Of a stretch of 64,000 nucleotides of DNA, positions 3,694 to 64,000 are shown in pieces. Location: NCBI GenBank assembly GCA_964543035.1, contig CAZIVL010000002.1, positions 58,340-122,339 on the forward strand, in the 5' to 3' direction. The stretch comes from an uncultured Gammaproteobacteria bacterium. Lineage in GTDB: Bacteria; Patescibacteriota; Microgenomatia; CAZETR01; Amesbacteraceae. Within the stretch, counting starts at the first letter, position 1. Every line of letters begins with the position of its first letter. The translations under genes were made by a program, and so were the position numbers. The notes under the pieces were generated by a model, which was not told the origin of the DNA, did not search any database, and saw only the letters and a list, made by a program, of their open reading frames with translations.

Positions 3694-4077
3694 TTATAAA
3701 TGGTCGGAAGTATCTGAGTCGGCATCTTCTTTGGTTTTGTGAATTGTGCCGTCTACATGATGGGGAGGGGAGTAAAGAGTATAGAGCTTGAGAGGTTGTG
3801 TGTCTGAAATATTGATGACATTGTGCTCGGTGCCGGCGGGGACTACAAACGCATCACCATCTCGAACCTCGTGTTCCTGGCCGTCCATAATCAACTTGCC
3901 TACACCAGATTCGATCCTCAAAAATTGGTCAGTCACGGCATGAACTTCGGTGCCGATCTCTCCCCTGGGAACAATAGACATGACGACCAATTGGGTGTGC
4001 TGGCTGGTAAACAATACTTGTCTAAAAAACTCATTTTTTCTGGTCTTTTCCTCGATATTGCCTACGAAACCTGTCAT
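3694..4077 (-). CDS. cupin domain protein
   Basis: 127 aa; HxH...E...H-type cupin motifs (GTEVHAVTDQF ... GDAFVVPAGTEHNVIN). Confidence 0.7.
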   Translation of the reverse strand: MTGFVGNIEEKTRKNEFFRQVLFTSQHTQLVVMSIVPRGEIGTEVHAVTDQFLRIESGVGKLIMDGQEHEVRDGDAFVVPAGTEHNVINISDTQPLKLYTLYSPPHHVDGTIHKTKEDADSDTSDHL

Positions 4078-4112
4078 TACTAATAGTATATACCCTTTGG
4101 TAAAATACAGAG

Positions 4113-4535
4113 GTGGCGGAGCTGAAAACTAAATTGACTAGTCAAGACCCTAAAGAATTTTTGGCAACTATTGAACCCGTCGAGAAAAGAAAAGCCGGAC
4201 TAGTGCTCCTGGATCTATTTGAAAAAGTCACGGGAGAAAAAGGAAAGATGTGGGGGAGTAGTATCGTCGGATTTGGGATGTATCACTATAAATCAGAAAG
4301 AAGTACACAAGAAGGGGACTGGCCACTGGTGGGGTTTTCACCCCGAAAGCAAAATCTGACCTTGTATCTGATGGCAGGATTTGGAGAACATAGAGAATTG
4401 TTGTCTAAACTGGGGAAACACAAAACGAGTGCAGGATCTTGCTTGTATATAAACAAACTTGAGGATGTGGATATGCAGGTGCTTTCGGCACTCATCAAAA
4501 AATCATATCTGGAGGCAAAGAAGAAACTGACTTGA
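4113..4535 (+). CDS. DUF1801 (YdhG-like) domain protein, GTG start
   Basis: 140 aa; overall YdhG/DUF1801-like pattern (KAGLVLLDLFEKVTGE...WGSSIVGFGMYHY). Confidence 0.6.
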   Translation: MAELKTKLTSQDPKEFLATIEPVEKRKAGLVLLDLFEKVTGEKGKMWGSSIVGFGMYHYKSERSTQEGDWPLVGFSPRKQNLTLYLMAGFGEHRELLSKLGKHKTSAGSCLYINKLEDVDMQVLSALIKKSYLEAKKKLT

Positions 4536-4538
4536 ATT

Positions 4539-4958
4539 TTAGACCCAGAGGGCGAGGAGCGTGCCCATGGAGCAAAGAAGGACTAGATAGTAAGCATTGT
4601 TGAGAGCGTAAAGTTTCCAGGACTTGCCCTCCCAGAGAACTGAAGCCAGAGTCGTGGGAGCGACAAAGCCTAGCCAATTCCAGAATCCAGTCTGAAGACC
4701 GGCGGAGACACCACTGGTGCCAAGATAGGACATGGCGAAAACAATAGTGTGGGACAGAACAAAAGCCATGATAAGGGAGCCTAAAAGCTGGATGCCGTAT
4801 AACTTGCCCATCTCGCTACTACTCATATTGATATCTTTTTTTGATAATCCCATGAGCTTCATCCAGGGTTTGCCAAAGATTGGGCCATACCAGAGGGAAC
4901 CTATAACCATAGAAAGAACGGCGCAGGCGAGAACGGCAAGATAATTTATGGGAACCAT
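4539..4958 (-). CDS. DUF1761 family membrane protein
   Basis: 139 aa, 4 TM; SLWYGPIFGKPWMKLMGLSK resembles the DUF1761 signature. Confidence 0.6.
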   Translation of the reverse strand: MVPINYLAVLACAVLSMVIGSLWYGPIFGKPWMKLMGLSKKDINMSSSEMGKLYGIQLLGSLIMAFVLSHTIVFAMSYLGTSGVSAGLQTGFWNWLGFVAPTTLASVLWEGKSWKLYALNNAYYLVLLCSMGTLLALWV

Positions 4959-4988
4959 GGAAGTGATGATGACAAAAATGATTGATGC

Positions 4989-5180
4989 TTGTCAAGGCCG
5001 GTGTATAATAAATTTATGAAAAATGGGGGAGGAGGAGCAGTATATGGACTGGGGTTTTTGGGAGCTCTGGTGTACTACTTTCAGCAAGCAAACGGATTTT
5101 GGGAAGTGATTGTGGGGATATTTAAGGCCATGCTGTGGCCAGGGATATTGGTGTATCAGATACTGAATTTTTTGGCATGA
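4989..5180 (+). CDS. small membrane protein
   Basis: 63-aa ORF with two hydrophobic helices; weak. Confidence 0.25.
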   Translation: MSRPVYNKFMKNGGGGAVYGLGFLGALVYYFQQANGFWEVIVGIFKAMLWPGILVYQILNFLA

Positions 5181-6976: not shown

Positions 6977-8662
6977 ATGCAACTGCCCTATCAAGATGCT
7001 GCCTTGTATCAGGCTCTTTCGGAACTCCAGGTAATAGAAAAAAACAAGCTGGATGAGGCTTATTTGGAAAGCCAGCAGAAAAAACTGAATCTGGCCAAAA
7101 TCCTTTTGGATAGAAACCTAATTGCGGATGAAAACCTGGGAAGAGTGGAGGCGGAACTGGCGGGGGTGCCGCTCGCTCGCCTGGGGGAAGTGGCGATACC
7201 GGACGATGTACTTCGAGTAGTGCCCGAGGTGATGGCGCGAAAGCAAAAAGTAATCGCTTTTGGACATGATGCCGCTGGCTGGAAACTGGCGATGGCAAAT
7301 CCCACTAACACTGAAGTCAGAGACTTTATCGCCAAAAAGACAGGAGAAAAAATAAATGTGTACTATGCCACTGAGCGAGACTTGGACATGGCCATGGGCT
7401 TCTATAAAAAAGATCTACAAAAATCTTTTGATGAACTGCTGGCGGCGCAGGTAAGTGAGGCCAGCCGGGGGGGACCGGCTAAATCTGAGGCGCCGATTAT
7501 AAAAATAGTCAGTCTCTTAATCGAATACGCGTTTGCCAACCGAGCATCGGATATCCATATAGATCCGGAGAAAAAGATAACTATTGTGCGATTTAGGGTA
7601 GATGGAGTGCTACATGATGTACTGGAACTGTCTCCTGAGATACAAGAACAAGTGGTGTCAAAGATAAAAGTGGCATCCAGACTACGAACTGATGAACATC
7701 TATCTGCTCAGGACGGGAAGATGCAGGCGATGGTCGAGAATGAAGAATTGGATATCCGTGTGTCAATAGTCCCGGTCGTGCATGGTGAGAAAATCGTGAT
7801 GCGCCTTCTGTCGTCTGGGATCAGGCAACTATCGATAGGAGACTTGGGAATGAGTGAAGTGGATCTGCAAAAAGTAAAAAGTGGATTTGATAAACCATAT
7901 GGAATGGTCCTGGTCACGGGGCCCACTGGATCAGGGAAGACGACGACTATCTATACAATTCTCAAAATTCTAAATGTGCGGGAGATCAATATCGCGAGTA
8001 TCGAAGATCCGGTGGAATATGACATCGAAGGTATTAACCAGATCCAAGTGAACCCTAAGACGAACCTGACATTTGCCAATGGACTCCGAGCAATCTTGCG
8101 TCAGGATCCAAATGCGATATTTGTGGGAGAAATCCGGGATGCGGAAACTGCCGATATCGCCGTCAACTCGGCCATGACGGGACACTTGGTCCTGTCGACC
8201 TTGCACACCAACGATGCAGCCACGACACTGCCGAGACTAATTGATATGGGAGTGGAACCCTTTTTGGTGGCATCGACTGTAAATATCATTGTGGGACAAA
8301 GACTTGTTCGAAAAATATGTGAGAAGTGCCGAGTATCACAGACTCTGACGCCTACTGAAGTGACAAGACACTTGCCGGAGGAGCTGGTCACGAAAGTATT
8401 TGGGACGGGAGAAATACGGGTGTATATGGGTAAGGGGTGCCCGGTGTGTCATGGAACAGGGTATACGGGGAGAGCGGGAATATTTGAAGTGTTGGAGATG
8501 ACCCCTGCTATCAAAGAGCTGATTATGAATAAAGCAGATGCCGACAAAATCCGTAAAGAAGCAGTGACTGCCGGTATGACTACAATGCTAGAAAATGGAC
8601 TCAAAAAAGCCGCTGCCGGTGTAACCACCATAGACGAAGTTATTCGAGTAACCAAAGAATAA
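6977..8662 (+). CDS. pilB: type IV pilus assembly ATPase PilB (GspE family)
   Basis: 561 aa; N-terminal GspII_E_N-like region, Walker A VTGPTGSGKTTT, His-box LVLSTLHTNDA, tetracysteine motif CEKC...CPVCHGTG. Confidence 0.9.
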   Translation: MQLPYQDAALYQALSELQVIEKNKLDEAYLESQQKKLNLAKILLDRNLIADENLGRVEAELAGVPLARLGEVAIPDDVLRVVPEVMARKQKVIAFGHDAAGWKLAMANPTNTEVRDFIAKKTGEKINVYYATERDLDMAMGFYKKDLQKSFDELLAAQVSEASRGGPAKSEAPIIKIVSLLIEYAFANRASDIHIDPEKKITIVRFRVDGVLHDVLELSPEIQEQVVSKIKVASRLRTDEHLSAQDGKMQAMVENEELDIRVSIVPVVHGEKIVMRLLSSGIRQLSIGDLGMSEVDLQKVKSGFDKPYGMVLVTGPTGSGKTTTIYTILKILNVREINIASIEDPVEYDIEGINQIQVNPKTNLTFANGLRAILRQDPNAIFVGEIRDAETADIAVNSAMTGHLVLSTLHTNDAATTLPRLIDMGVEPFLVASTVNIIVGQRLVRKICEKCRVSQTLTPTEVTRHLPEELVTKVFGTGEIRVYMGKGCPVCHGTGYTGRAGIFEVLEMTPAIKELIMNKADADKIRKEAVTAGMTTMLENGLKKAAAGVTTIDEVIRVTKE

Positions 8663-8667
8663 ATAAT

Positions 8668-9714
8668 ATGAGCGTATCGCCGGTAGAAAAACTTCTTCTG
8701 ACCAAACACTTGGCCATAATGCTCAAAGCCGGAATACCCCTGACTGAAGCCGTGAATGTGGTGATCGCACAGACGAAAAATAGCGCGTTCAAAAAACTCC
8801 TAGGGGGAATTGAGGCAAATCTGAGAAATGGGCAAACACTGGAAAAAAGTCTGTCTAAGTACCCCAAAGTATTTGATCCTCTATACCGAAGTATTGTGGC
8901 AATCGGGGAAGAGTCAGGGGTCTTGGAAAAAAACCTAAATTATTTGGCATCACAACTGGAAAGAACTTATGAATTTAGACGAAAAGTACAAGGGGCCCTC
9001 TTGTACCCGGTAATAGTCCTGATAACAATGGCGATTGTGGGGAGTGGCATAGCTTTGTTTGTGCTGCCACAACTTGTGGATCTGTTTGCCTCGCTGGAGG
9101 TGGAGCTGCCAATGTCTACCAAGGTGCTGCTGTTTGTGGCAACGGCTATGAAATCGCATGGAGTGATAATAATTGCCAGCTTGTTTGGGGCTGTGGGTCT
9201 ATTTGCATTACTTGTACAGACAAGACCCATCAAGCCTATTTGGCAGAGATTTCTTTTGAGACTGCCTATATTTGGTAACTTGAGACAACAAATGGAGATG
9301 GCTATGTTTTGTCGCAATTTGGGCATCATGCTTCGATCTGGACTGCCTATTGCCTCGGCTCTCAAATCTTGTGGTGAAGCCACGGAAAACCTGATCTATA
9401 AATCATATGTCTTGGGATTGGAAAGAGCAGTAGATGGGGGATCGACAATCGAAAACGAGCTTTCCAATGGAAAATATCCACTGGTGCCTACAATGGTGAC
9501 GAAGATGGTGGGGATTGGGGAAAAGTCAGGAAATCTGGATGAAGTACTTTTATATTTGGCGGACTTTTTTGAAGAAGAAGTGGATCATATGACAAAGAGT
9601 CTGTCTACGATACTTGAGCCGGTACTCTTGTTTGCTATTGCCATGGTGGTCGGATTTTTGGCATTGTCTATCATCTCACCTATCTATAAATTTACTGGTA
9701 GTGTAGGGAACTGA
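8668..9714 (+). CDS. pilC: type IV pilus platform protein PilC (GspF family)
   Basis: 348 aa, duplicated GspF-type domains with 3 TM segments. Confidence 0.85.
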   Translation: MSVSPVEKLLLTKHLAIMLKAGIPLTEAVNVVIAQTKNSAFKKLLGGIEANLRNGQTLEKSLSKYPKVFDPLYRSIVAIGEESGVLEKNLNYLASQLERTYEFRRKVQGALLYPVIVLITMAIVGSGIALFVLPQLVDLFASLEVELPMSTKVLLFVATAMKSHGVIIIASLFGAVGLFALLVQTRPIKPIWQRFLLRLPIFGNLRQQMEMAMFCRNLGIMLRSGLPIASALKSCGEATENLIYKSYVLGLERAVDGGSTIENELSNGKYPLVPTMVTKMVGIGEKSGNLDEVLLYLADFFEEEVDHMTKSLSTILEPVLLFAIAMVVGFLALSIISPIYKFTGSVGN

Positions 9715-57606: not shown

Positions 57607-58284
57607 ATGGATGGAGAACCGCTGAGCGAGAGAATAGGAGAAGTAAAAGAAAGAGAGAGTAAAGAGGCCAGGAGACTGTATGTAGTGGTACATGCACAAA
57701 ATGTGGCGAGTGCAGATATCGCAAATGTAGATTTGGGACACAGGCTTGAAGAAAGGTTTCGAATGGATAAGGATGATGTGATGTGGTTTATGCCCATGAA
57801 TTTTGATAAGTCACTAAGCCAACAAAAAACTGAAGTGCGTAAGAACCTGTTTGCAAAAGCTGCAAATCCTAATGTTGGAGATTGGATAAGTTTATACAGA
57901 AGTTTTAAAGGAAAAAGTCCAGAACAGGTGATGCTGAGTCATGAGATGGTATTTAGCGAAACTATTCAATCTTCAGGGAAACAAAAGATTGATGATATGG
58001 TGGAAAGGACTGAACAGAAAGGATGGGAGATTACAAATAACACTGAGGTAATCGTAGGTGGAGAGATTACCGAGTGGTGTGTAAAAAATGCTGTATTGGC
58101 TATTTTTAAATCTCCTAAATTTAATAGGATATGGATTGATACTGCCGCGTCTAAACCTGAGAGAACTACTGACAGAGCGGTTGAAAGAATAGTGGGTGAA
58201 ATTGAATACACCGAAAGGTGGGGTCTTCATGCCAAATATAATCAGGAGAGAAAAATGGTGGAGGTTACTCGAAGAGTGAATTAG
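57607..58284 (+). CDS. hypothetical protein (weak isochorismatase/cysteine-hydrolase-like pattern)
   Basis: LYVVVHAQNV and EVIVGGEITEWCV resemble the two core strands of isochorismatase-family proteins, but the usual Asp is replaced; speculative. Confidence 0.3.
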   Translation: MDGEPLSERIGEVKERESKEARRLYVVVHAQNVASADIANVDLGHRLEERFRMDKDDVMWFMPMNFDKSLSQQKTEVRKNLFAKAANPNVGDWISLYRSFKGKSPEQVMLSHEMVFSETIQSSGKQKIDDMVERTEQKGWEITNNTEVIVGGEITEWCVKNAVLAIFKSPKFNRIWIDTAASKPERTTDRAVERIVGEIEYTERWGLHAKYNQERKMVEVTRRVN

Positions 58285-59718: not shown

Positions 59719-60228
59719 TTGGTGATGGAAAATTATCAGAGCTCTAATTGGTGGAACTACATGGATGACACGATGAGGGATCTGGCGACACAATCGCACA
59801 CGCTTTTGGAAACATTTAAGGACGATGGAAAGTCTGGACATCATGACTACTCATTTGTCGTGTTTCCGATGTCCAAAGCCTATGAGGGTTTCCTCAAAAA
59901 GCTATTTTTGGATATGGGGCTGATTGGAATGGCGCAGTACAAAGGGGAGCACTTAAGAATCGGAAAAATACTCAATCCAAACCTACCAAGAAGATATAGA
60001 TCGGGTTGGGTGTTTGAAAAACTATCTGCTGCTTGTGGCGGAGAAGACCTACCGCTGACTCTGTGGGAAACATGGAAGAGAGCCCGAAACCGAGTATTTC
60101 ATTTTTTTCCGGATCACGCTGAATTTCTCACCTATGAAGAAGCGAAAAACCTAATAAATAAAATAATGGAAGCTATGGATAAAGCCTTGGCTGGATGTGA
60201 AGTGAAGAGTATGCCCAACGCTGTATAA
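59719..60228 (+). CDS. hypothetical protein with HEPN-like R-x4-H motif
   Basis: 169 aa; ARNRVFHF (R-N-x-x-x-H) near the C-terminal third in a predicted helical protein; 3 nt downstream of the zinc-ribbon ORF. Confidence 0.3.
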   Translation: MVMENYQSSNWWNYMDDTMRDLATQSHTLLETFKDDGKSGHHDYSFVVFPMSKAYEGFLKKLFLDMGLIGMAQYKGEHLRIGKILNPNLPRRYRSGWVFEKLSAACGGEDLPLTLWETWKRARNRVFHFFPDHAEFLTYEEAKNLINKIMEAMDKALAGCEVKSMPNAV

Positions 60229-60303: not shown

Positions 60304-60945
60304 TTGTGGCATACTGATTGGTGCCCTATGGGAGAGAAGTCAGAAATGATTCGGACTTGGGGGAGCCTGAGAGCTGCTGCTTTTGGTAGTGTAGCTGCTG
60401 TGTTTTTGGGAAGCTTGGTACTTTTGGTCTCGCTACTGGCAATATCGCCTTCGGTTGTGTCTCCGCATGAAGTCACGGCCCTAATCGGGGAAGTGCCCAA
60501 GGTCGAATACTACTTGCCATATCCGGGAATACTGCCAGACAGTCCGCTGTATAAGATCAAAGCGGCTCGGGATAAAGTATCGCTACTTGTGACTCTAAAC
60601 CCAGAAAAGAAGGCTGAGAAAGAACTGTTTTTGGCTGACAAAAGAATAAACGCAGCTCTGGCTCTTTATGATGGCGGAAAAGTAGATCTGGCAATATCGG
60701 TGGCTACTAAAGCTGAGAAATATCTGGCTTCGTCTGTAAAGGGGGCAGTGAAACTGGCGTCTGAAGGAAAAGATGTCAAATCTCTTTTGAACCGATTGTC
60801 TCTTGCTACTATGAAGCATGTGGAACTGCTGAACTCTTTTAAGACAAAATCGAACGGAACGCAGGGAGTAGTGTTGGAAACAGTTATGGTAGAGGTGGAT
60901 GCCCTACATGATCTGGTGGATCAAGCCTTGGTGGAGAGTGAGTGA
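60304..60945 (+). CDS. DUF5667-like secreted/anchored protein
   Basis: N-terminal TM; YYLPYPGILPDSPLYKIK motif as recalled for DUF5667; helical remainder. Confidence 0.4.
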   Translation: MWHTDWCPMGEKSEMIRTWGSLRAAAFGSVAAVFLGSLVLLVSLLAISPSVVSPHEVTALIGEVPKVEYYLPYPGILPDSPLYKIKAARDKVSLLVTLNPEKKAEKELFLADKRINAALALYDGGKVDLAISVATKAEKYLASSVKGAVKLASEGKDVKSLLNRLSLATMKHVELLNSFKTKSNGTQGVVLETVMVEVDALHDLVDQALVESE

Positions 60946-60960
60946 TCTGATTAGATATAG

Positions 60961-61013
60961 TTGACATTGGTTATCTAGTGTTTTAGTCTAGTGTTCGTCA
61001 CTAAATGTAGTAT
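60961..61013 (+). promoter_or_regulatory. putative nrdR promoter (TTGACA-N17-TAGTCT) and NrdR-box-like imperfect palindrome
   Basis: TTGACA 60961-60966; TAGTCT 60984-60989; CACTAAATGTAGTA at 60999-61012 approximates the ACTA-N4-TAGT core of NrdR boxes and overlaps the nrdR ATG. Confidence 0.3.
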
Positions 61014-61461
61014 GCGTTGCCCTTTTTGTGCGGTCCTTGACACATCAGTATTGGAGTCCAGGGTGGCCGAAGACGGTCAATCTTTGCGACGCAGAAGAGA
61101 GTGCCAAAAATGTGAGAAAAGGTTTACTACTTTTGAAAGAGTAGAAGGACCCACAATTTTTGTCATCAAGCGTGACGGAGGTCGAGAACCATTTGACCGG
61201 GAAAAGATCATCCGGGGGGTGAGTCGGTCATTTGATAAAAGACCAGTGTCCATTGATCTGATACATCATCTGGCTGATGAAGTAGAAAGAGAAGTGAGAC
61301 GCAAAGAAGTCTCTGAGATATCTTCTAAGGCTATTGGCCGGATGGTACTTAAGAGACTCAAAAATATAGACAAGGTGGCCTGGGTGAGGTTCGCCAGCGT
61401 GTATCTGGAGCTGACAGACTTGACCGCTTTCGAAAGACTCATTGAAAAGATAACTAGTTAA
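61012..61461 (+). CDS. nrdR: transcriptional repressor NrdR
   Basis: MRCPFC...ECQKCEKRFTTFE zinc ribbon followed by an ATP-cone; start chosen at the conserved MRCPFC. Confidence 0.9.
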   Translation: MRCPFCAVLDTSVLESRVAEDGQSLRRRRECQKCEKRFTTFERVEGPTIFVIKRDGGREPFDREKIIRGVSRSFDKRPVSIDLIHHLADEVEREVRRKEVSEISSKAIGRMVLKRLKNIDKVAWVRFASVYLELTDLTAFERLIEKITS

Positions 61462-61512
61462 AAACTAAAAACAAAAAAACTAAGTACCAAATAACAACTA
61501 AGTAATCAAATT

Positions 61513-64000
61513 ATGACCGATATACAATTACAATCTGCCCTTGTAAAAAAGACCAGGGGAAGGCCCAAAAAGACAAATGGACACGTCAAAACAGAGGTGG
61601 TAAAGAGTGAAGTGGTGTGGCCCACCAAGATCATGAAGAGAGATGGGCGGGAAGTGGAATTTGACATAAAGAGAATAGAGCGAGCGATTGAAAAATGTTT
61701 TTTGGAGATGAAAAAACAACCAGAAACTTCGTATGAGGAGTTGGGGCGCCGGGTCGTAAATATAGTGGCAGCAAAATATACAGAGCCCACTGTCGAACAA
61801 GTACAAGACATTGTAGAAATGGTACTCCAGGCCGCCGGTGAATTTGAGGCTGCTAAAAGATATATCCTCTACCGAGCTGAAAAAGCAAAACTTCGAGAAG
61901 TAAGACCTGTACCTGCTTCGGTCAAAGCGGCTTTTGAGGAAGCGGATAAATATTTTCCCACTCAACTACAAAAATTTCAGTTTTTTGATAAGTACTCACG
62001 ATTTAATTATGACCTAGGTAGACGCGAAACCTGGGTGGAGACGGTGGACCGCTCGATCGATTTTTTGCGAGATCTGACAAAACAAACTACGGGACTGCCG
62101 GAAGCAACATTTGACCGACTGCGAAAATCGATACTGAAAATGGAAGCGGCGCCATCGATGCGACTCCTGGCTATGGCGGGGTCTGCGGCTAAGAGATCCA
62201 ATATTGCTATCTATAACTGCTCGTATCAGCCGGTGGAAAGCATTGATTCTTTTGTGGAGGCACTCTTGATCTCTATGAACGGGTGCGGAGTAGGATTTTC
62301 GGTAGAAGGAAAATATGTGGAGAGCCTGCCGCGAGTCAAAAGACAAATCCAGTCACTACCGCTCAAATACACAGTAGAAGATTCGACTGAGGGGTGGGCT
62401 AATGCAGTGCGACTGGGACTGTCTACTTGGTTTGAGGGAGGAGATATCCAGTTTGATTATTCTCAAGTCAGACCAGCGGGGGCGATACTAAAAATCAAGG
62501 GAGGAAGAGCGTCAGGTCCTGACCCTTTACGCAAAATGCTGGATTTTGCCCGGGCGAGAATACTATCTAGACAAGGCAGCTTCCTGCGCCCAATTGACGC
62601 TCACGACATCATGTGTGAAGTGGGAAATGCGGCCGTGTCGGGAGGGATGAGGAGGACCGCTATGATCTCGCTATTTGACTGGGATGATGAAGAAATGCGT
62701 AACTGCAAAAGTGGTGACTTTGAGCGGGAAAACTCACAAAGGTGGAATGCCAACAATTCTGTCGTCTGGCCGGACCGGGGAATCACGCAAGAAGAACTGA
62801 TGACCCAGATGCTGGAGATGGCCAAAGGGGGAAGAGGAGAGCCGGGAATATTTAATAGGCGGGGAGCCATCGATATGAGGCCGGCCAGAAGACAGGCGGC
62901 TGAGTTTGGGACCAATCCTTGTGTTACTGCTGATACCTGGGTAATGACAAGTAATGGCCCGAGGCAAGTAAATGATTTGATAGGGAATGATTATGTGGCG
63001 GTCGTGAACGGTAAAAAGTTTTTGGCCAAAGGATTTTGGAAAACAGGTGAGAAATTGGTATTGAAAGTCACAACAAAAGAAGGCCTTAGTCTGAAATTAA
63101 CCGACAACCATAAGGTTCTGTCGGTCCCTTATATGAGCAGGAAAATTGAGAAGACTGAGTGGGTAGAGGCGGGGAAATTGAAGATTGGCGATAAGATAAA
63201 AATTCACAATCATGGAAATAACTCGTGGGCAGGTGAGGGTAATGTCGACGGTGGATGGTTGTTGGGTTCATTAGTGGGTGATGGGACTTTTGATAAAAGG
63301 ACTGCCCATCTTACTTATTGGGGAGAAAATAGGTTAGCTATGGCACAGAAGGCAACGGAGTTTATCCATAAAAACTTGAATGCTAGGTCTGACCTGAGTG
63401 GACACAATCAGATTAAACACAACAGAAGCACAATAGGATCTGTCGGATTGATGGAATATGCGGCTGATTTTGGAATCAAATGGGGATTGAAGACCGTGAC
63501 TGACTTGGTCGAAAAAGGATCGAGTGATTTTTATAAGGGTTTTTTGCAAGGGTTATTTGATGCTGATGGGACAGTTGGCGGAACTCAGGAGAAAGGTGTG
63601 AGTGTGAGGTTGGCTCAGTCGGACTACTCTTTATTGGAAGGTGTGCAAAGGATGTTGCTAAGACTGGGAATCGCATCTGTGATCTATAAGAATCGTCGTA
63701 TTTCAGGTATGAGAAAACTGCCTGATGGTCATGGTGGGTACAAACTGTTTGATTGTAGAGCAGACCATGAGTTGGTAATTGCTAACGATAACTTAAACAG
63801 ATTTGCAGGAGTGATTAATTTTTCTGATCCTGATAAGAAAGCTCGGTTGGATGTAGCGATGGGATCATACAAAAGGAAATTGAATAGAGAGAGATTTGTG
63901 GTTACGGTGGAAAAAGTGGAAGTGGTGGGAGTAGAAGATGTATACGACTGCGCTGTTGATGTGGTTCATGCATTTGATGCTAATGGACTATATGTACACA
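61513..64000 (+). CDS. ribonucleotide reductase catalytic subunit with N-terminal ATP-cone, probably class II/adenosylcobalamin-type by the NPC(GE)-type active site; contains an intein; 3' end beyond window
   Basis: Frame-1 ORF open from the ATG at 61513 to the window end (not in the ORF track because no stop is reached). ATP cone KIMKRDGREVEFDIKRIERAIEKCF; radical-site context GTNP then C at 62920. Confidence 0.75.
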   Translation, partial: MTDIQLQSALVKKTRGRPKKTNGHVKTEVVKSEVVWPTKIMKRDGREVEFDIKRIERAIEKCFLEMKKQPETSYEELGRRVVNIVAAKYTEPTVEQVQDIVEMVLQAAGEFEAAKRYILYRAEKAKLREVRPVPASVKAAFEEADKYFPTQLQKFQFFDKYSRFNYDLGRRETWVETVDRSIDFLRDLTKQTTGLPEATFDRLRKSILKMEAAPSMRLLAMAGSAAKRSNIAIYNCSYQPVESIDSFVEALLISMNGCGVGFSVEGKYVESLPRVKRQIQSLPLKYTVEDSTEGWANAVRLGLSTWFEGGDIQFDYSQVRPAGAILKIKGGRASGPDPLRKMLDFARARILSRQGSFLRPIDAHDIMCEVGNAAVSGGMRRTAMISLFDWDDEEMRNCKSGDFERENSQRWNANNSVVWPDRGITQEELMTQMLEMAKGGRGEPGIFNRRGAIDMRPARRQAAEFGTNPCVTADTWVMTSNGPRQVNDLIGNDYVAVVNGKKFLAKGFWKTGEKLVLKVTTKEGLSLKLTDNHKVLSVPYMSRKIEKTEWVEAGKLKIGDKIKIHNHGNNSWAGEGNVDGGWLLGSLVGDGTFDKRTAHLTYWGENRLAMAQKATEFIHKNLNARSDLSGHNQIKHNRSTIGSVGLMEYAADFGIKWGLKTVTDLVEKGSSDFYKGFLQGLFDADGTVGGTQEKGVSVRLAQSDYSLLEGVQRMLLRLGIASVIYKNRRISGMRKLPDGHGGYKLFDCRADHELVIANDNLNRFAGVINFSDPDKKARLDVAMGSYKRKLNRERFVVTVEKVEVVGVEDVYDCAVDVVHAFDANGLYVH
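62920..64000 (+). mobile_element. intein with LAGLIDADG homing-endonuclease domain inserted at the RNR active-site Cys
   Basis: Block A CVTADTWVMTSNGPRQVNDL directly after N-P; LAGLIDADG motifs GWLLGSLVGDGTF and GFLQGLFDADGTV; block F/G EDVYDCAVDVVHAFDANGLYVH, where the terminal Asn codon would fall just past position 64000. Confidence 0.8.

Follow-up and report, generated by a model that had tools for sequence, protein, structure and literature searches.

The position immediately before the thiyl-radical cysteine is the most frequent one for inteins of ribonucleotide reductases (Dassa et al., 2009, PMC2677866), and an earlier note's description of such inteins as classic selfish elements agrees with that work. 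The RIR1 inteins of class I and II reductases (InBase alleles per PMC2677866) share with the one described here the insertion point xTNP/CGE (the slash marks the junction), the presumed use of the catalytic cysteine as +1 nucleophile, and a common build, a Hint splicing domain with a nested LAGLIDADG endonuclease. For the regulation of such genes, the closest described system is nrdRJ of S. coelicolor, in which nrdR directly precedes the gene of a class II reductase and a pair of partly palindromic 16-bp boxes, separated by 15-16 bp, lies over the RNA polymerase site (Rozman Grinberg et al., 2022, PMC9110341; Shahid et al., 2026, PMC13584703). Both features have likely counterparts here, and boxes so placed imply autoregulation.

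The locus occupies the last 3 kb of a 64-kb stretch of Candidatus Amesbacteria DNA (Microgenomates, CPR), the whole of which is referred to below as the window, and reads as the start of an nrdR-nrdJ operon (Table 1). The joint reading proposed here, to which we give a probability of roughly 0.88, is that the operon encodes a class II reductase interrupted just before its radical cysteine by an intein that spreads by homing, and that it is repressed by NrdR through tandem boxes.

Table 1. Features of the nrdR-nrdJ locus, in window coordinates
Feature	Position	Strand	Basis
Putative -35 hexamer TTGACA, nrdR-nrdJ promoter	60961..60966	+	Read from sequence; conserved in relatives
Candidate NrdR box 1, ATTGGTTATCTAGTGT, with a degenerate left and a good right half	60966..60981	+	10/16 consensus
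Putative -10 hexamer TAGTCT, 17 nt after -35, within inter-box linker	60984..60989	+	Read from sequence
Candidate NrdR box 2, TCACTAAATGTAGTAT; overlaps first two bases of nrdR ATG	60998..61013	+	12/16 consensus
nrdR, 149 aa, Zn-ribbon and ATP-cone transcriptional repressor	61012..61461	+	Pfam, NCBIfam
N-extein, class II ribonucleotide reductase, aa 1-469, ends ...EFGTNP	61513..62919	+	Translation, Pfam, PDB 1L1L, TIGR02505
Intein, 361 aa, nested LAGLIDADG homing endonuclease	62920..64000 (last codon to 64002, 2 nt past window)	+	Sequence, HMMs, L001 junction, model
Intein Cys1 (Cys470, TGT, then CVTADTWV)	62920-62922	+	Translation
Intein block B, TDNH	63100-63111	+	Motif position
Intein LAGLIDADG-1, LLGSLVGDG	63259-63285	+	Motif position
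Intein LAGLIDADG-2, LQGLFDADG	63544-63570	+	Motif position
Intein block F, VYDCAVD	63940-63960	+	Motif position
Intein terminal His-Asn	63997-64002	+	Sequence and L001

The product of the first gene begins MRCPFC..., has the Zn-ribbon (PF22811, 3.8e-19) and ATP-cone (PF03477, 6e-22) of NrdR, scores 181 bits against TIGR00244 (cut-off 124.65), and is 79-86% identical to NrdR of Candidatus Amesbacteria. A GTG at 60991, given as its start by the ORF tool, was rejected because the Pfam Zn-ribbon model aligns in full from the ATG at 61012 (model positions 1-42 to residues 1-42). The second ORF runs from an ATG at 61513 for 829 codons and is open to the window end; Pfam domains in its N-extein are ATP-cone (residues 39-124, 61627-61884, E 1.8e-19), RNR_Alpha and RNR-II_ins_dom. 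The earlier note's outline, nrdR followed by a reductase with an N-terminal ATP-cone in an ORF still open at the window's edge, is borne out by the translation and by Pfam and NCBIfam matches to both genes.

The window stops inside the inserted element, and restoration of the frame is invisible from it alone, as would also be so for an assembly chimera, or for a non-splicing insertion domain in a pseudogene. The missing C-extein, which extension of the contig had been expected to reveal, was recovered on Logan contig SRR16481186_47071 (L001), from an independent public assembly that agrees with the window at every one of the 4122 bases where the two overlap (100%). The C-terminal intein junction, read from this second assembly and lying outside the window itself, is ...NGLYVHN/CGEIILRPWQFCNL... 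(LYVHN/CGEIILRP...), after which 320 in-frame codons align to the reductase C-terminus, for an intein-containing precursor of 1150 aa without stops. The outcome that would have refuted the earlier note's reading, a downstream sequence that fails to restore the reductase in frame, did not occur. With a full set of splicing residues and some 60 independent sequences with equal junctions (see below), the chimera or pseudogene reading is effectively refuted.

With the exteins joined, the best PDB match is the L. leichmannii ribonucleoside-triphosphate reductase, 1L1L (E 1.6e-39), and among NCBIfam models RTPR (TIGR02505) scores highest. The spliced GTNPCGEI aligns with the identical motif of 1L1L, which we take to hold its thiyl-radical Cys408; the likeness extends to the second active-site cysteine (FCNL) and the C-terminal CxxxxC pair. 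The match is nevertheless divergent, falling into three segments and scoring 264 bits against a trusted cut-off of 340; the alignment to 1L1L begins only near extein residue 160 and leaves out the ATP-cone that the Amesbacteria enzyme has in addition at its N-terminus. Alignment, proposed in the earlier note as the means of assigning the class, assigns the enzyme to class II (adenosylcobalamin-type), as a reductase of the L. leichmannii-like, presumably monomeric kind with an added ATP-cone; because the extein is below the RTPR cut-off and the insertion domain below that of Pfam (24.3 against 27), a monomeric state and a specificity for triphosphates are only tentative.

The insertion does fall in the catalytic NPC motif, as first noticed, but the intein does not continue after NPC: it separates Pro469 from the radical cysteine (NP/C). 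The cysteine at 62920 is intein residue 1, and the catalytic cysteine is the first C-extein residue (C831), just past the window; of the terminal Asn codon only the first base (A, 64000) is inside, ...LYVH ending on the last full codon. Intein models all score above cut-off (Pfam LAGLIDADG_3, 81.5 bits against 22.5, and Intein_splicing, 36.9 against 35.8; NCBIfam intein_Nterm TIGR01445, 36.5 against 24.5), and an AF2 model is confident (pLDDT 95.8, pTM 0.93). Together with the in-frame C-extein and the existence of intein-less orthologues, these matches uphold the original description of a canonical two-motif LAGLIDADG intein. In an alignment of 46 sequences, Thr61 is conserved in 44 and His64 and His360 in 45 each, the last followed by Asn in 43 and then Cys in 31; the Amesbacteria intein has the complete set of splicing and endonuclease residues.

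Following established intein chemistry, the 1150-aa precursor would be inactive because the intein interrupts the finger loop that carries the NPCGE motif. Cys1 (C470) of this class-1 intein would undergo an N-S acyl shift aided by block B Thr530 and His533, and the thioester would pass to C831, so that the future radical cysteine would double as the +1 splicing nucleophile. Cyclisation of Asn830 with His829 would release the intein, and an S-N shift would rebuild ...GTNP-CGEIIL... (predicted junction peptide ...EFGTNPCGEIILR...) in an active 789-aa enzyme. One possibility is that this splicing is conditional, a disulfide between Cys1 and the +1 cysteine, or other redox sensing, acting as a post-translational switch atop NrdR and the ATP-cone. 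The nucleophiles at both junctions are indeed cysteines, but nothing in the sequence is specific to a switch, Cys1 with Cys+1 being the commonest intein configuration. There are precedents in other proteins, where inteins having a cysteine at each junction are known to be trapped by redox state (review PMC5874633), and in the A. aeolicus R2 intein, which benefits the mature enzyme by measurably improving its cofactor loading (PMC8772380); conservation of the target DNA explains the site preference well enough, however, and intein-less orthologues function in sister lineages, which makes a switch very unlikely.

Once excised, the intein would act as an apparently intact two-motif LAGLIDADG endonuclease (D121, D216), cutting intein-less alleles at a highly conserved DNA site into which it would be copied by repair. 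Such homing would explain the occurrence of one intein family at one site in many phyla and its absence from two orthologues 70-73% identical to the present reductase. About 60 homologues from other phyla are inserted at TNP/CGE, with C-terminal junctions reading HN/CGEQ in 44 and HN/CGEI in 18, and with ATNP/C upstream in 33; they are 37-68% identical to the Amesbacteria intein and come from Chloroflexota, Proteobacteria, Nitrospirae, archaea and others. The intein-less orthologues are 70.7% (L005) and 73.0% (L012) identical over the whole extein. Other monomeric-type reductases whose C-exteins are about 70% identical do have inteins, of only 48-68% identity; a patchy presence of this kind is typical of gain and loss.

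A possible, though rather doubtful, alternative is that the intein splices but its endonuclease is inactive or has run out of targets, leaving a fixed, vertically inherited passenger that is not currently mobile. Long vertical residence would fit the distance of the nearest homologues (62-63% identity over most of the length, 68% over a 190-residue fragment), whose C-exteins are about 70% identical. It would also fit a search of the 64-kb window in which the intein turned up nowhere else, whether whole or in part, and a base composition that is no outlier for the genome: GC is 42.0% in the intein, lower than the 48.0% and 47.7% of its exteins, but 11% of same-size windows are equally low. Against it, the acidic residues are kept in both LAGLIDADG motifs (Asp216 in all 46 homologues, Asp or Glu at position 121 in 44), the endonuclease domain is modelled at high confidence with matches to I-DmoI-like folds, and orthologues at equal extein distance lack the intein, so that gain or loss must have occurred within the clade. 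An element mobile by homing is therefore the reading retained here.

Upstream, the earlier note had seen an NrdR-box-like palindrome over the nrdR start. This is supported in the fuller form of a tandem pair, judged by the core positions and linker of PMC13584703: two 16-bp boxes with a 16-bp linker bracket the -10 hexamer. Box 2 has all six core positions (C4, A6, A8, T9, T11, G13), with A/T at 7 of the 8 bases between C4 and G13, and box 1 has four (A8, T9, T11, G13), lacking C4 and A6. A search of the window with the strict consensus that had been proposed, ACACTATATATAGTGT, gave no hit even when 3 mismatches were allowed; the boxes are recognisable only through the six core positions, their spacing and their conservation across species. 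NrdR, with dATP and ATP, would bind both boxes as a tetramer; they begin at the last base of -35, bracket -10, and would cover the start point of transcription along with the nrdR ATG, allowing NrdR to repress nrdR and the reductase gene alike at high dNTP levels. For the NrdR proteins of S. coelicolor and of E. coli, C4 is reported to be critical to binding (PMC13584703), and box 1 lacks it along with A6; NrdR may therefore bind here only weakly, or chiefly through box 2.

These sequences might instead be only a conserved sigma-70-type promoter with an incidental resemblance to NrdR boxes. The incomplete core of box 1 would allow this, as would the failure of the strict consensus, the 34 occurrences of the six-position core alone in the window, and the Glu, in place of Asp, that CPR NrdRs carry at base-contacting position 15 (compared with PMC9110341); no binding data for any CPR NrdR were found in the literature searched. 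The promoter elements themselves are putative: TTGAC keeps a constant position relative to box 1 in Microgenomates relatives and a TAnnnT element is conserved at the -10 place. The proposed nrdR-nrdJ promoter is absent from the output of a generic promoter scan because the -10 hexamer matches at only 3 of 6 positions. A plain promoter, however, needs no palindromes, and relatives have near-perfect ones at both positions (e.g., CCACTAAATATAGTGG, CCCCTAGATATAGGGG, ATACTACATTTAGTGT) with a linker of 15-16 bp, the whole -35/box 1/-10/box 2 layout recurring in 22 of 22 of their promoters. A qualifying pair (31-32 bp spacing; 10 or more of 16 positions matching in one box and 12 or more in the other) occurs once in the window, exactly at nrdR, with 0.02 expected, and the layout parallels that of the nrdRJ promoter of S. 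coelicolor, which has been studied by experiment (PMC9110341), so a promoter alone is an unlikely explanation and NrdR boxes are preferred. Control would probably extend to nrdJ by co-transcription: the genes are 51 nt apart, no + strand terminator was found between them, and in the relatives examined the reductase gene lies from a few to about 170 nt after nrdR, with other neighboring genes shared as well. A PduO-type cobalamin adenosyltransferase gene follows downstream.

Lying at the commonest known site for such elements, the Amesbacteria intein is an ordinary further example of them. It differs from the RIR1 inteins in its host, a CPR monomeric-type enzyme with an ATP-cone. The NrdJ-1 and NrdJ-2 split inteins of ocean metagenomes (Dassa et al., 2009) likewise interrupt the catalytic motif of class II reductases, but they insert after the cysteine, one residue further C-terminal, and consist of two halves that flank a free-standing endonuclease gene, whereas the Amesbacteria intein precedes the cysteine and is contiguous. 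Its two-domain fold is that of TliVMA (7QSU), PI-SceI (1EF0, 1VDE) and PI-PfuI (1DQ3; from the P. furiosus reductase), with Foldseek E-values from 4.9e-18 (TliVMA) to 1.2e-14, probability 1.0 for each, and TM 0.61-0.67 on the query; these solved inteins are only 14-17% identical to it in sequence, a sequence-level PDB search finding nothing but a weak DnaB mini-intein match, and both PI-SceI and PI-PfuI are larger than its 361 aa (PI-PfuI has 454 aa). From S. coelicolor nrdRJ, the locus differs in the lack of C4 and A6 in box 1, in Glu15 rather than Asp15 in NrdR, in the apparently monomeric type of its intein-containing reductase, and in the overlap of box 2 with the nrdR start codon, with which the leader would be only about 15 nt.

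The reductase gene that follows nrdR is interrupted by a class 1 (Hint) intein with a two-motif LAGLIDADG endonuclease, for which both splicing and cleavage are predicted from sequence and structural model. The window ends within the gene, and its continuation comes from a public assembly found by look-up of the exact NrdR protein: Logan contig SRR16481186_47071 (L001; 16.7 kb) overlaps the window by 4,122 bases without a mismatch and reaches 7.5 kb beyond it. There the ORF (L001 1635-5087) reads ...LYVHN/CGEIILRPWQFCNLT... (slash, junction) to a stop, giving a 1150-aa precursor. Since L001 reads on in frame past LYVHN, the intein is 361 aa long (protein residues 470-830; window 62920 to 64002, 2 nt beyond the end); the terminal His-Asn and the +1 Cys are read on L001, the window itself stopping after the His and one base of the Asn codon. 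The N-extein (aa 1-469) ends in Pro and the C-extein (320 aa) opens with the Cys of NPCGE, presumably the thiyl-radical Cys, going by the residue numbering of 1L1L (the Lactobacillus leichmannii ribonucleoside-triphosphate reductase, RTPR). The earlier note had expected a C-extein in frame downstream, and LYVHN is indeed followed by CGE. It had also placed the intein at the catalytic N-P-C site: the site stands, the position of the catalytic Cys does not. Because the insertion lies between the Pro and the NPCGE Cys (NP/C), the Cys at 62920 is an intein residue and the catalytic Cys falls just outside the window.

Coordinates of the features of the nrdR-reductase locus within the window
Feature	Position	Strand	Remarks
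TTGACA hexamer	60961-60966	+	putative promoter element; last base is the first base of box 1
NrdR box 1 (putative), ATTGGTTATCTAGTGT	60966-60981	+	4/6 core positions; C4 and A6 missing
TAGTCT	60984-60989	+	putative promoter element; in the linker, 17 nt after TTGACA
NrdR box 2 (putative), TCACTAAATGTAGTAT	60998-61013	+	6/6 core positions; 7/8 A/T inside; covers first two ATG bases
nrdR	61012-61461	+	from ATG; 149 aa, MRCPFC...; Pfam, NCBIfam
Reductase ORF	61513 to window end	+	from ATG; 829 codons, open; translation
Intein Cys1 (protein Cys470), CVTADTWV...	62920-62922	+	directly after ...AAEFGTNP
Block B, TDNH (intein aa 61-64)	63100-63111	+	motif position
LAGLIDADG motif 1, LLGSLVGDG (D121)	63259-63285	+	motif position
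LAGLIDADG motif 2, LQGLFDADG (D216)	63544-63570	+	motif position
Block F, VYDCAVD	63940-63960	+	motif position
Last full codons, ...NGLYVH	to 63999	+	the next codon opens at base 64000

That the element is a LAGLIDADG intein, as first proposed, is borne out by HMM matches, fold and conserved residues. Both splicing models exceed their cut-offs (Intein_splicing, 36.9 against 35.8 bits; intein_Nterm, 36.5 against 24.5 bits; Pfam and NCBIfam), and the Pfam model LAGLIDADG_3 scores 81.5 bits. A sequence search of the PDB with the intein gave as its sole match a marginal DnaB mini-intein (E 0.008), so a fold comparison was needed. AlphaFold (AF2) reached a pLDDT of 34 from the single sequence, and a pLDDT of 95.8 with a pTM of 0.93 from an alignment with 46 sequences. 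Foldseek matched this model to TliVMA (7QSU, E 4.9e-18), PI-SceI and PI-PfuI, the last being the Pyrococcus furiosus reductase intein, all with probability 1.0; its inner domain matches I-DmoI-type LAGLIDADG enzymes. Among the 46 homologues, position 1 is Cys in 33 and Ser in 6, and the block B residues Thr61 (44/46) and His64 (45/46), the acidic residue (Asp/Glu) of motif 1 (44/46) and Asp216 (46/46) are all kept in the window's intein; the penultimate residue is His in 45, followed by Asn in 43 and then by Cys in 31. Removal of the element from the sequence restores the host protein: the predicted spliced product of 789 aa, with the predicted junction peptide EFGTNPCGEIILR, aligns end to end with two uninterrupted orthologues from related loci, L005 (70.7%) and L012 (73.0%), whose intein-less junction reads, for example, TTTGGAACAAATCCA/TGCGGAGAGATAATT, and it aligns with 1L1L across the junction. 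No second copy of the intein was found in the window.

What kind of reductase is restored? Pfam finds in the ORF an ATP-cone (aa 39-124, 1.8e-19), RNR_Alpha, Intein_splicing and LAGLIDADG_3; RNR-II_ins_dom, the dimer-mimicking loop-1 insertion domain that marks monomeric class II enzymes, scores 24.3 bits, under the Pfam cut-off of 27. The best PDB relative of the spliced sequence is 1L1L (E 1.6e-39), with GTNPCGEI, ...FCNL and NC(S/W) matching and the C-terminal ACIAGACEI pairing with DCEGGACPI (the catalytic cysteines, namely the radical Cys, the redox pair of the active site and the C-terminal pair, all have counterparts), and the best NCBIfam model is TIGR02505, RTPR (E 2.5e-78; 264 bits, below its 340-bit cut-off). 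The dimeric model NrdJ_Z gives 57 bits only, and the C-terminal zinc finger of dimeric-type relatives, which most dimeric class II enzymes are reported to have (PMC9669993), is missing. The alternatives of a class I NrdA and of a dimeric NrdJ were rejected on these grounds: the motif is CGEI rather than CGEQ, there is no C-terminal zinc finger, and the NrdJ_Z score is low. Since 1L1L and RTPR match best, NrdJ_Z scores low and the zinc finger is absent, the enzyme is called a divergent class II reductase, putatively of monomeric type and extended by an ATP-cone. Alignment to NrdJ and NrdA had been suggested for assigning the class; the PDB and family-model matches favor the monomeric class II type, with the RTPR match under its cut-off. 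On L001 the reductase is followed, a few genes on, by a gene for a PduO-type cobalamin adenosyltransferase (Cob_adeno_trans; 8157-8693), and relatives have similar N-termini (e.g., MGKIYTKKGD...) after the reductase, the likeness being judged by N-terminal sequence alone; a PduO-type adenosyltransferase as neighbor is consistent with the predicted B12 dependence.

The preceding gene is nrdR, as the earlier note had it: the product matches the NrdR zinc ribbon (3.8e-19) and the ATP-cone (6e-22) in Pfam, and TIGR00244 with 181 bits against a cut-off of 124.65 (NCBIfam). An ORF listing gave GTG 60991 as its start; this was dropped for ATG 61012, because residue 1 of the zinc-ribbon model falls on the Met there. 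The spacer between nrdR and the reductase gene is 51 nt, A-rich and free of a plus-strand terminator; the minus strand of the region has short ORFs only, and tRNA and Rfam scans of the locus found nothing. The protein is 79-86% identical to NrdR in assemblies of Amesbacteria and further Microgenomates, several of which carry the mistaken label “uncultured Gammaproteobacteria”; the organism is a Candidatus Amesbacteria. CxxC...CxxC, the RRRR motif (R26-R29) and R17 are all there, and residue 15 is Glu rather than Asp. The sequence VLESR with Glu15 occurs in the window's protein (61054-61056) and in those of the relatives whose N-termini were compared (among L002-L023, the related Microgenomates loci). 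In Streptomyces coelicolor NrdR, Asp15 and Arg17 read conserved G-C pairs of the box (PMC9110341).

An NrdR-box-like palindrome overlapping the nrdR start had been noted earlier, together with a consensus for wider searching. A tandem pair does overlap the start; the proposed consensus fared less well, its strict form ACACTATATATAGTGT giving 0 matches across the window at up to 3 mismatches. It was replaced by consensus scoring, a spacing test and cross-species comparison. The six-position core alone (CNANATNTNG), with 34 matches in the window, was too unspecific. An NrdR site consists of a pair of 16-bp boxes, 15-16 bp apart, each with the core C4, A6, A8, T9, T11, G13 (Shahid et al., 2026; PMC13584703). 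When every 16-mer of the window was scored against the NrdR consensus, three reached at least 12/16, and only at 60966 and 60998 (linker, 16 bp) do two sites, one with at least 10 matches and the other with at least 12, lie at a spacing of 31-32 bp, for a chance expectation of 0.02 per window. The other two sites of at least 12/16, 1494-1509 (ACACATCATAGAGTGT) and 57673-57688 (AGACTGTATGTAGTGG), have no partner at 31-32 bp; chance alone would give about 1.9 such singletons. TTGACA-17-TAGTCT was absent from the output of a generic promoter and terminator scan, which returned only a weaker TGGAGA/TATAGT pair at chance level.

Judged by alignment of the upstream regions, this putative tandem-box architecture is conserved across Microgenomates: the order TTGAC, box 1, TAnnnT, box 2 precedes nrdR in all 22 of 22 relatives, with a linker of 15-16 bp, and near-perfect palindromes occur among their boxes (CCACTAAATATAGTGG, CCCCTAGATATAGGGG, ATACTACATTTAGTGT). 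The weak left half of box 1 is shared by several Amesbacteria relatives; other relatives have 6/6 core positions. The best reading is that NrdR would autoregulate the nrdR-nrdJ operon through these boxes, since the tandem-box layout is that of the S. coelicolor nrdRJ operon: there, likewise, two boxes lie at the promoter, and the NrdR tetramer loaded with dATP/ATP binds both and blocks it (PMC9110341). The earlier hint of autoregulation gains from both comparisons. Two caveats apply: box 1 is weak, and CPR (Candidate Phyla Radiation) NrdRs have Glu15 where the studied proteins carry the base-contacting Asp15. Glu15 and the degeneracy of the left half of box 1 might go together, and the two variants could inform rules of operator recognition that are now under experimental study. 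Nearly all of the related nrdR promoters (L002-L023) share a further element, TTTGA...(T)AGTT, just ahead of TTGAC, 10-25 nt before the -35; the window has a weaker version of it (tctGAttagatatAGTT, 60945-60960). This element may act in an UP-like manner or offer another site for binding.

The intein alone, as query, gave 282 protein matches. Upstream junctions projected on them read ATNP/C in 33, STNP/C in 5 and GTNP/C in 3, and downstream junctions HN/CGEQ in 44 and HN/CGEI in 18: homologous inteins occupy the same site in class II reductases, and perhaps in class I enzymes too. By source name, the hosts include Chloroflexota, Alpha-, Beta- and Gammaproteobacteria, Nitrospiraceae, Desulfobacteraceae, Actinomycetales and archaea. 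The longest match has 631 aa, so intein-bearing relatives were compared by junction fragments only; an identical 1150-aa precursor was not among the matches, and long intein-containing precursors seem to be missing or truncated in that database. Many intein-bearing reductase fragments there are titled just “LAGLIDADG family homing endonuclease, partial.”

In the relatives examined, the reductase gene starts within a few to about 170 nt after nrdR, and neighboring genes are shared. In L005 and L012 the gene is of the same monomeric type (at the identities given for the spliced product) and free of any intein, and most other relatives have a dimeric-type NrdJ after nrdR. Database fragments with C-exteins about 70% identical to the window's have inteins only 48-68% identical. 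Taken together, intein-less orthologues and divergent inteins beside similar C-exteins make a patchy presence and absence, as a homing element would be expected to show. The intein's GC content is 6 points under that of both exteins, a weak sign of foreign origin, since 11% of genome windows are equally low.

Several features of the related loci stand beside this. The Amesbacteria slot nrdR-[reductase]-GHMP kinase/adenosyltransferase (about 6450-8950 in L002-L012) is filled in two ways: by a class II enzyme of monomeric type with ATP-cone in the window, L005 and L012, and by a dimeric-type NrdJ with the C-terminal zinc finger in L002, L004 and L006-L011. From gene order and sequence it looks as if reductase types have been swapped in place under the same putatively NrdR-controlled promoter. 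In L020 (6506-10195; Patescibacteria MAG CAZIPM010000004.1), the intein at TNP/C of a dimeric-type NrdJ is a different one, about 390 aa long and ending in ...NGVVSFD/CGEQ; a C-terminal Asp with no penultimate His is an atypical splicing terminus. Upstream of nrdR in the window lie a small protein with weak, sub-threshold likeness to a HEPN/RNase LS toxin (59719-60228) and a DUF5667 protein (60304-60945), and conserved N-termini suggest that both ORFs are syntenic in Amesbacteria and other Microgenomates relatives.

Homologues of the intein also occur as free-standing genes with their own start and stop codons, in two Syntrophorhabdales contigs (L082 and L083, both at 4001-5125) and among the protein matches P0051-P0057 and P0062-P0071. 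They are about 375 aa long and 37-41% identical to the window's intein, with an 8-aa leader before the Ser or Cys of position 1, and end in ...GFYVHN plus 2-5 residues. The L082 and L083 genes lie 4-6 nt from ORFs of 628 and 180 aa; as neither has a Pfam match, the context is not a reductase. These homologues may be domesticated, stand-alone Hint-plus-LAGLIDADG proteins, or may mark a fractured host gene.

A working model for the locus can be put together from these elements. Transcription would start about 15 nt before the nrdR ATG and be repressed by NrdR when dATP rises. The precursor would be inactive because 361 residues interrupt the finger loop, until class 1 splicing (thioester at Cys470, transfer to Cys831, cyclization of Asn830, S-N shift) rebuilt GTNP-CGEI; the mature enzyme would be further controlled by its own ATP-cone, and the endonuclease of the freed intein would target intein-less alleles. 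No second reductase gene was found in the 64-kb window or in the 7.5-kb L001 extension, so in this reduced-genome CPR organism the sole visible dNTP route may run through splicing of a precursor at the future radical Cys. Another possibility is that the intein is not a mere parasite but adds a third, post-translational layer of control to those of NrdR and the ATP-cone, splicing being conditional on a redox-sensitive disulfide between Cys1 and Cys+1, or on binding of cobalamin or nucleotides to the exteins; this is very improbable.

The main value of the finding is a clean annotation: the gene would otherwise be named a 1150-aa “LAGLIDADG endonuclease” or a partial reductase, as many of its database relatives are. 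The pair of intein-plus and intein-minus orthologues is a natural substrate for homing tests, and the intein a further Cys+1 example for the protein-engineering toolbox. Current understanding is unchanged by the locus, whose parts are all of well-described types: an NrdR tandem-box regulon and a LAGLIDADG intein, the latter at the site most used by reductase inteins. Modest additions are the variant box 1, the presence of an ATP-cone in a class II enzyme of monomeric type, and the host itself: the most common reductase intein allele has also reached the Candidate Phyla Radiation, and close relatives within Amesbacteria differ in having or lacking it. The window's intein is a new member of this best-populated allele, distinct in its site from the NrdJ split inteins of Dassa et al. 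(2009; PMC2677866), which are inserted one residue further C-terminal.
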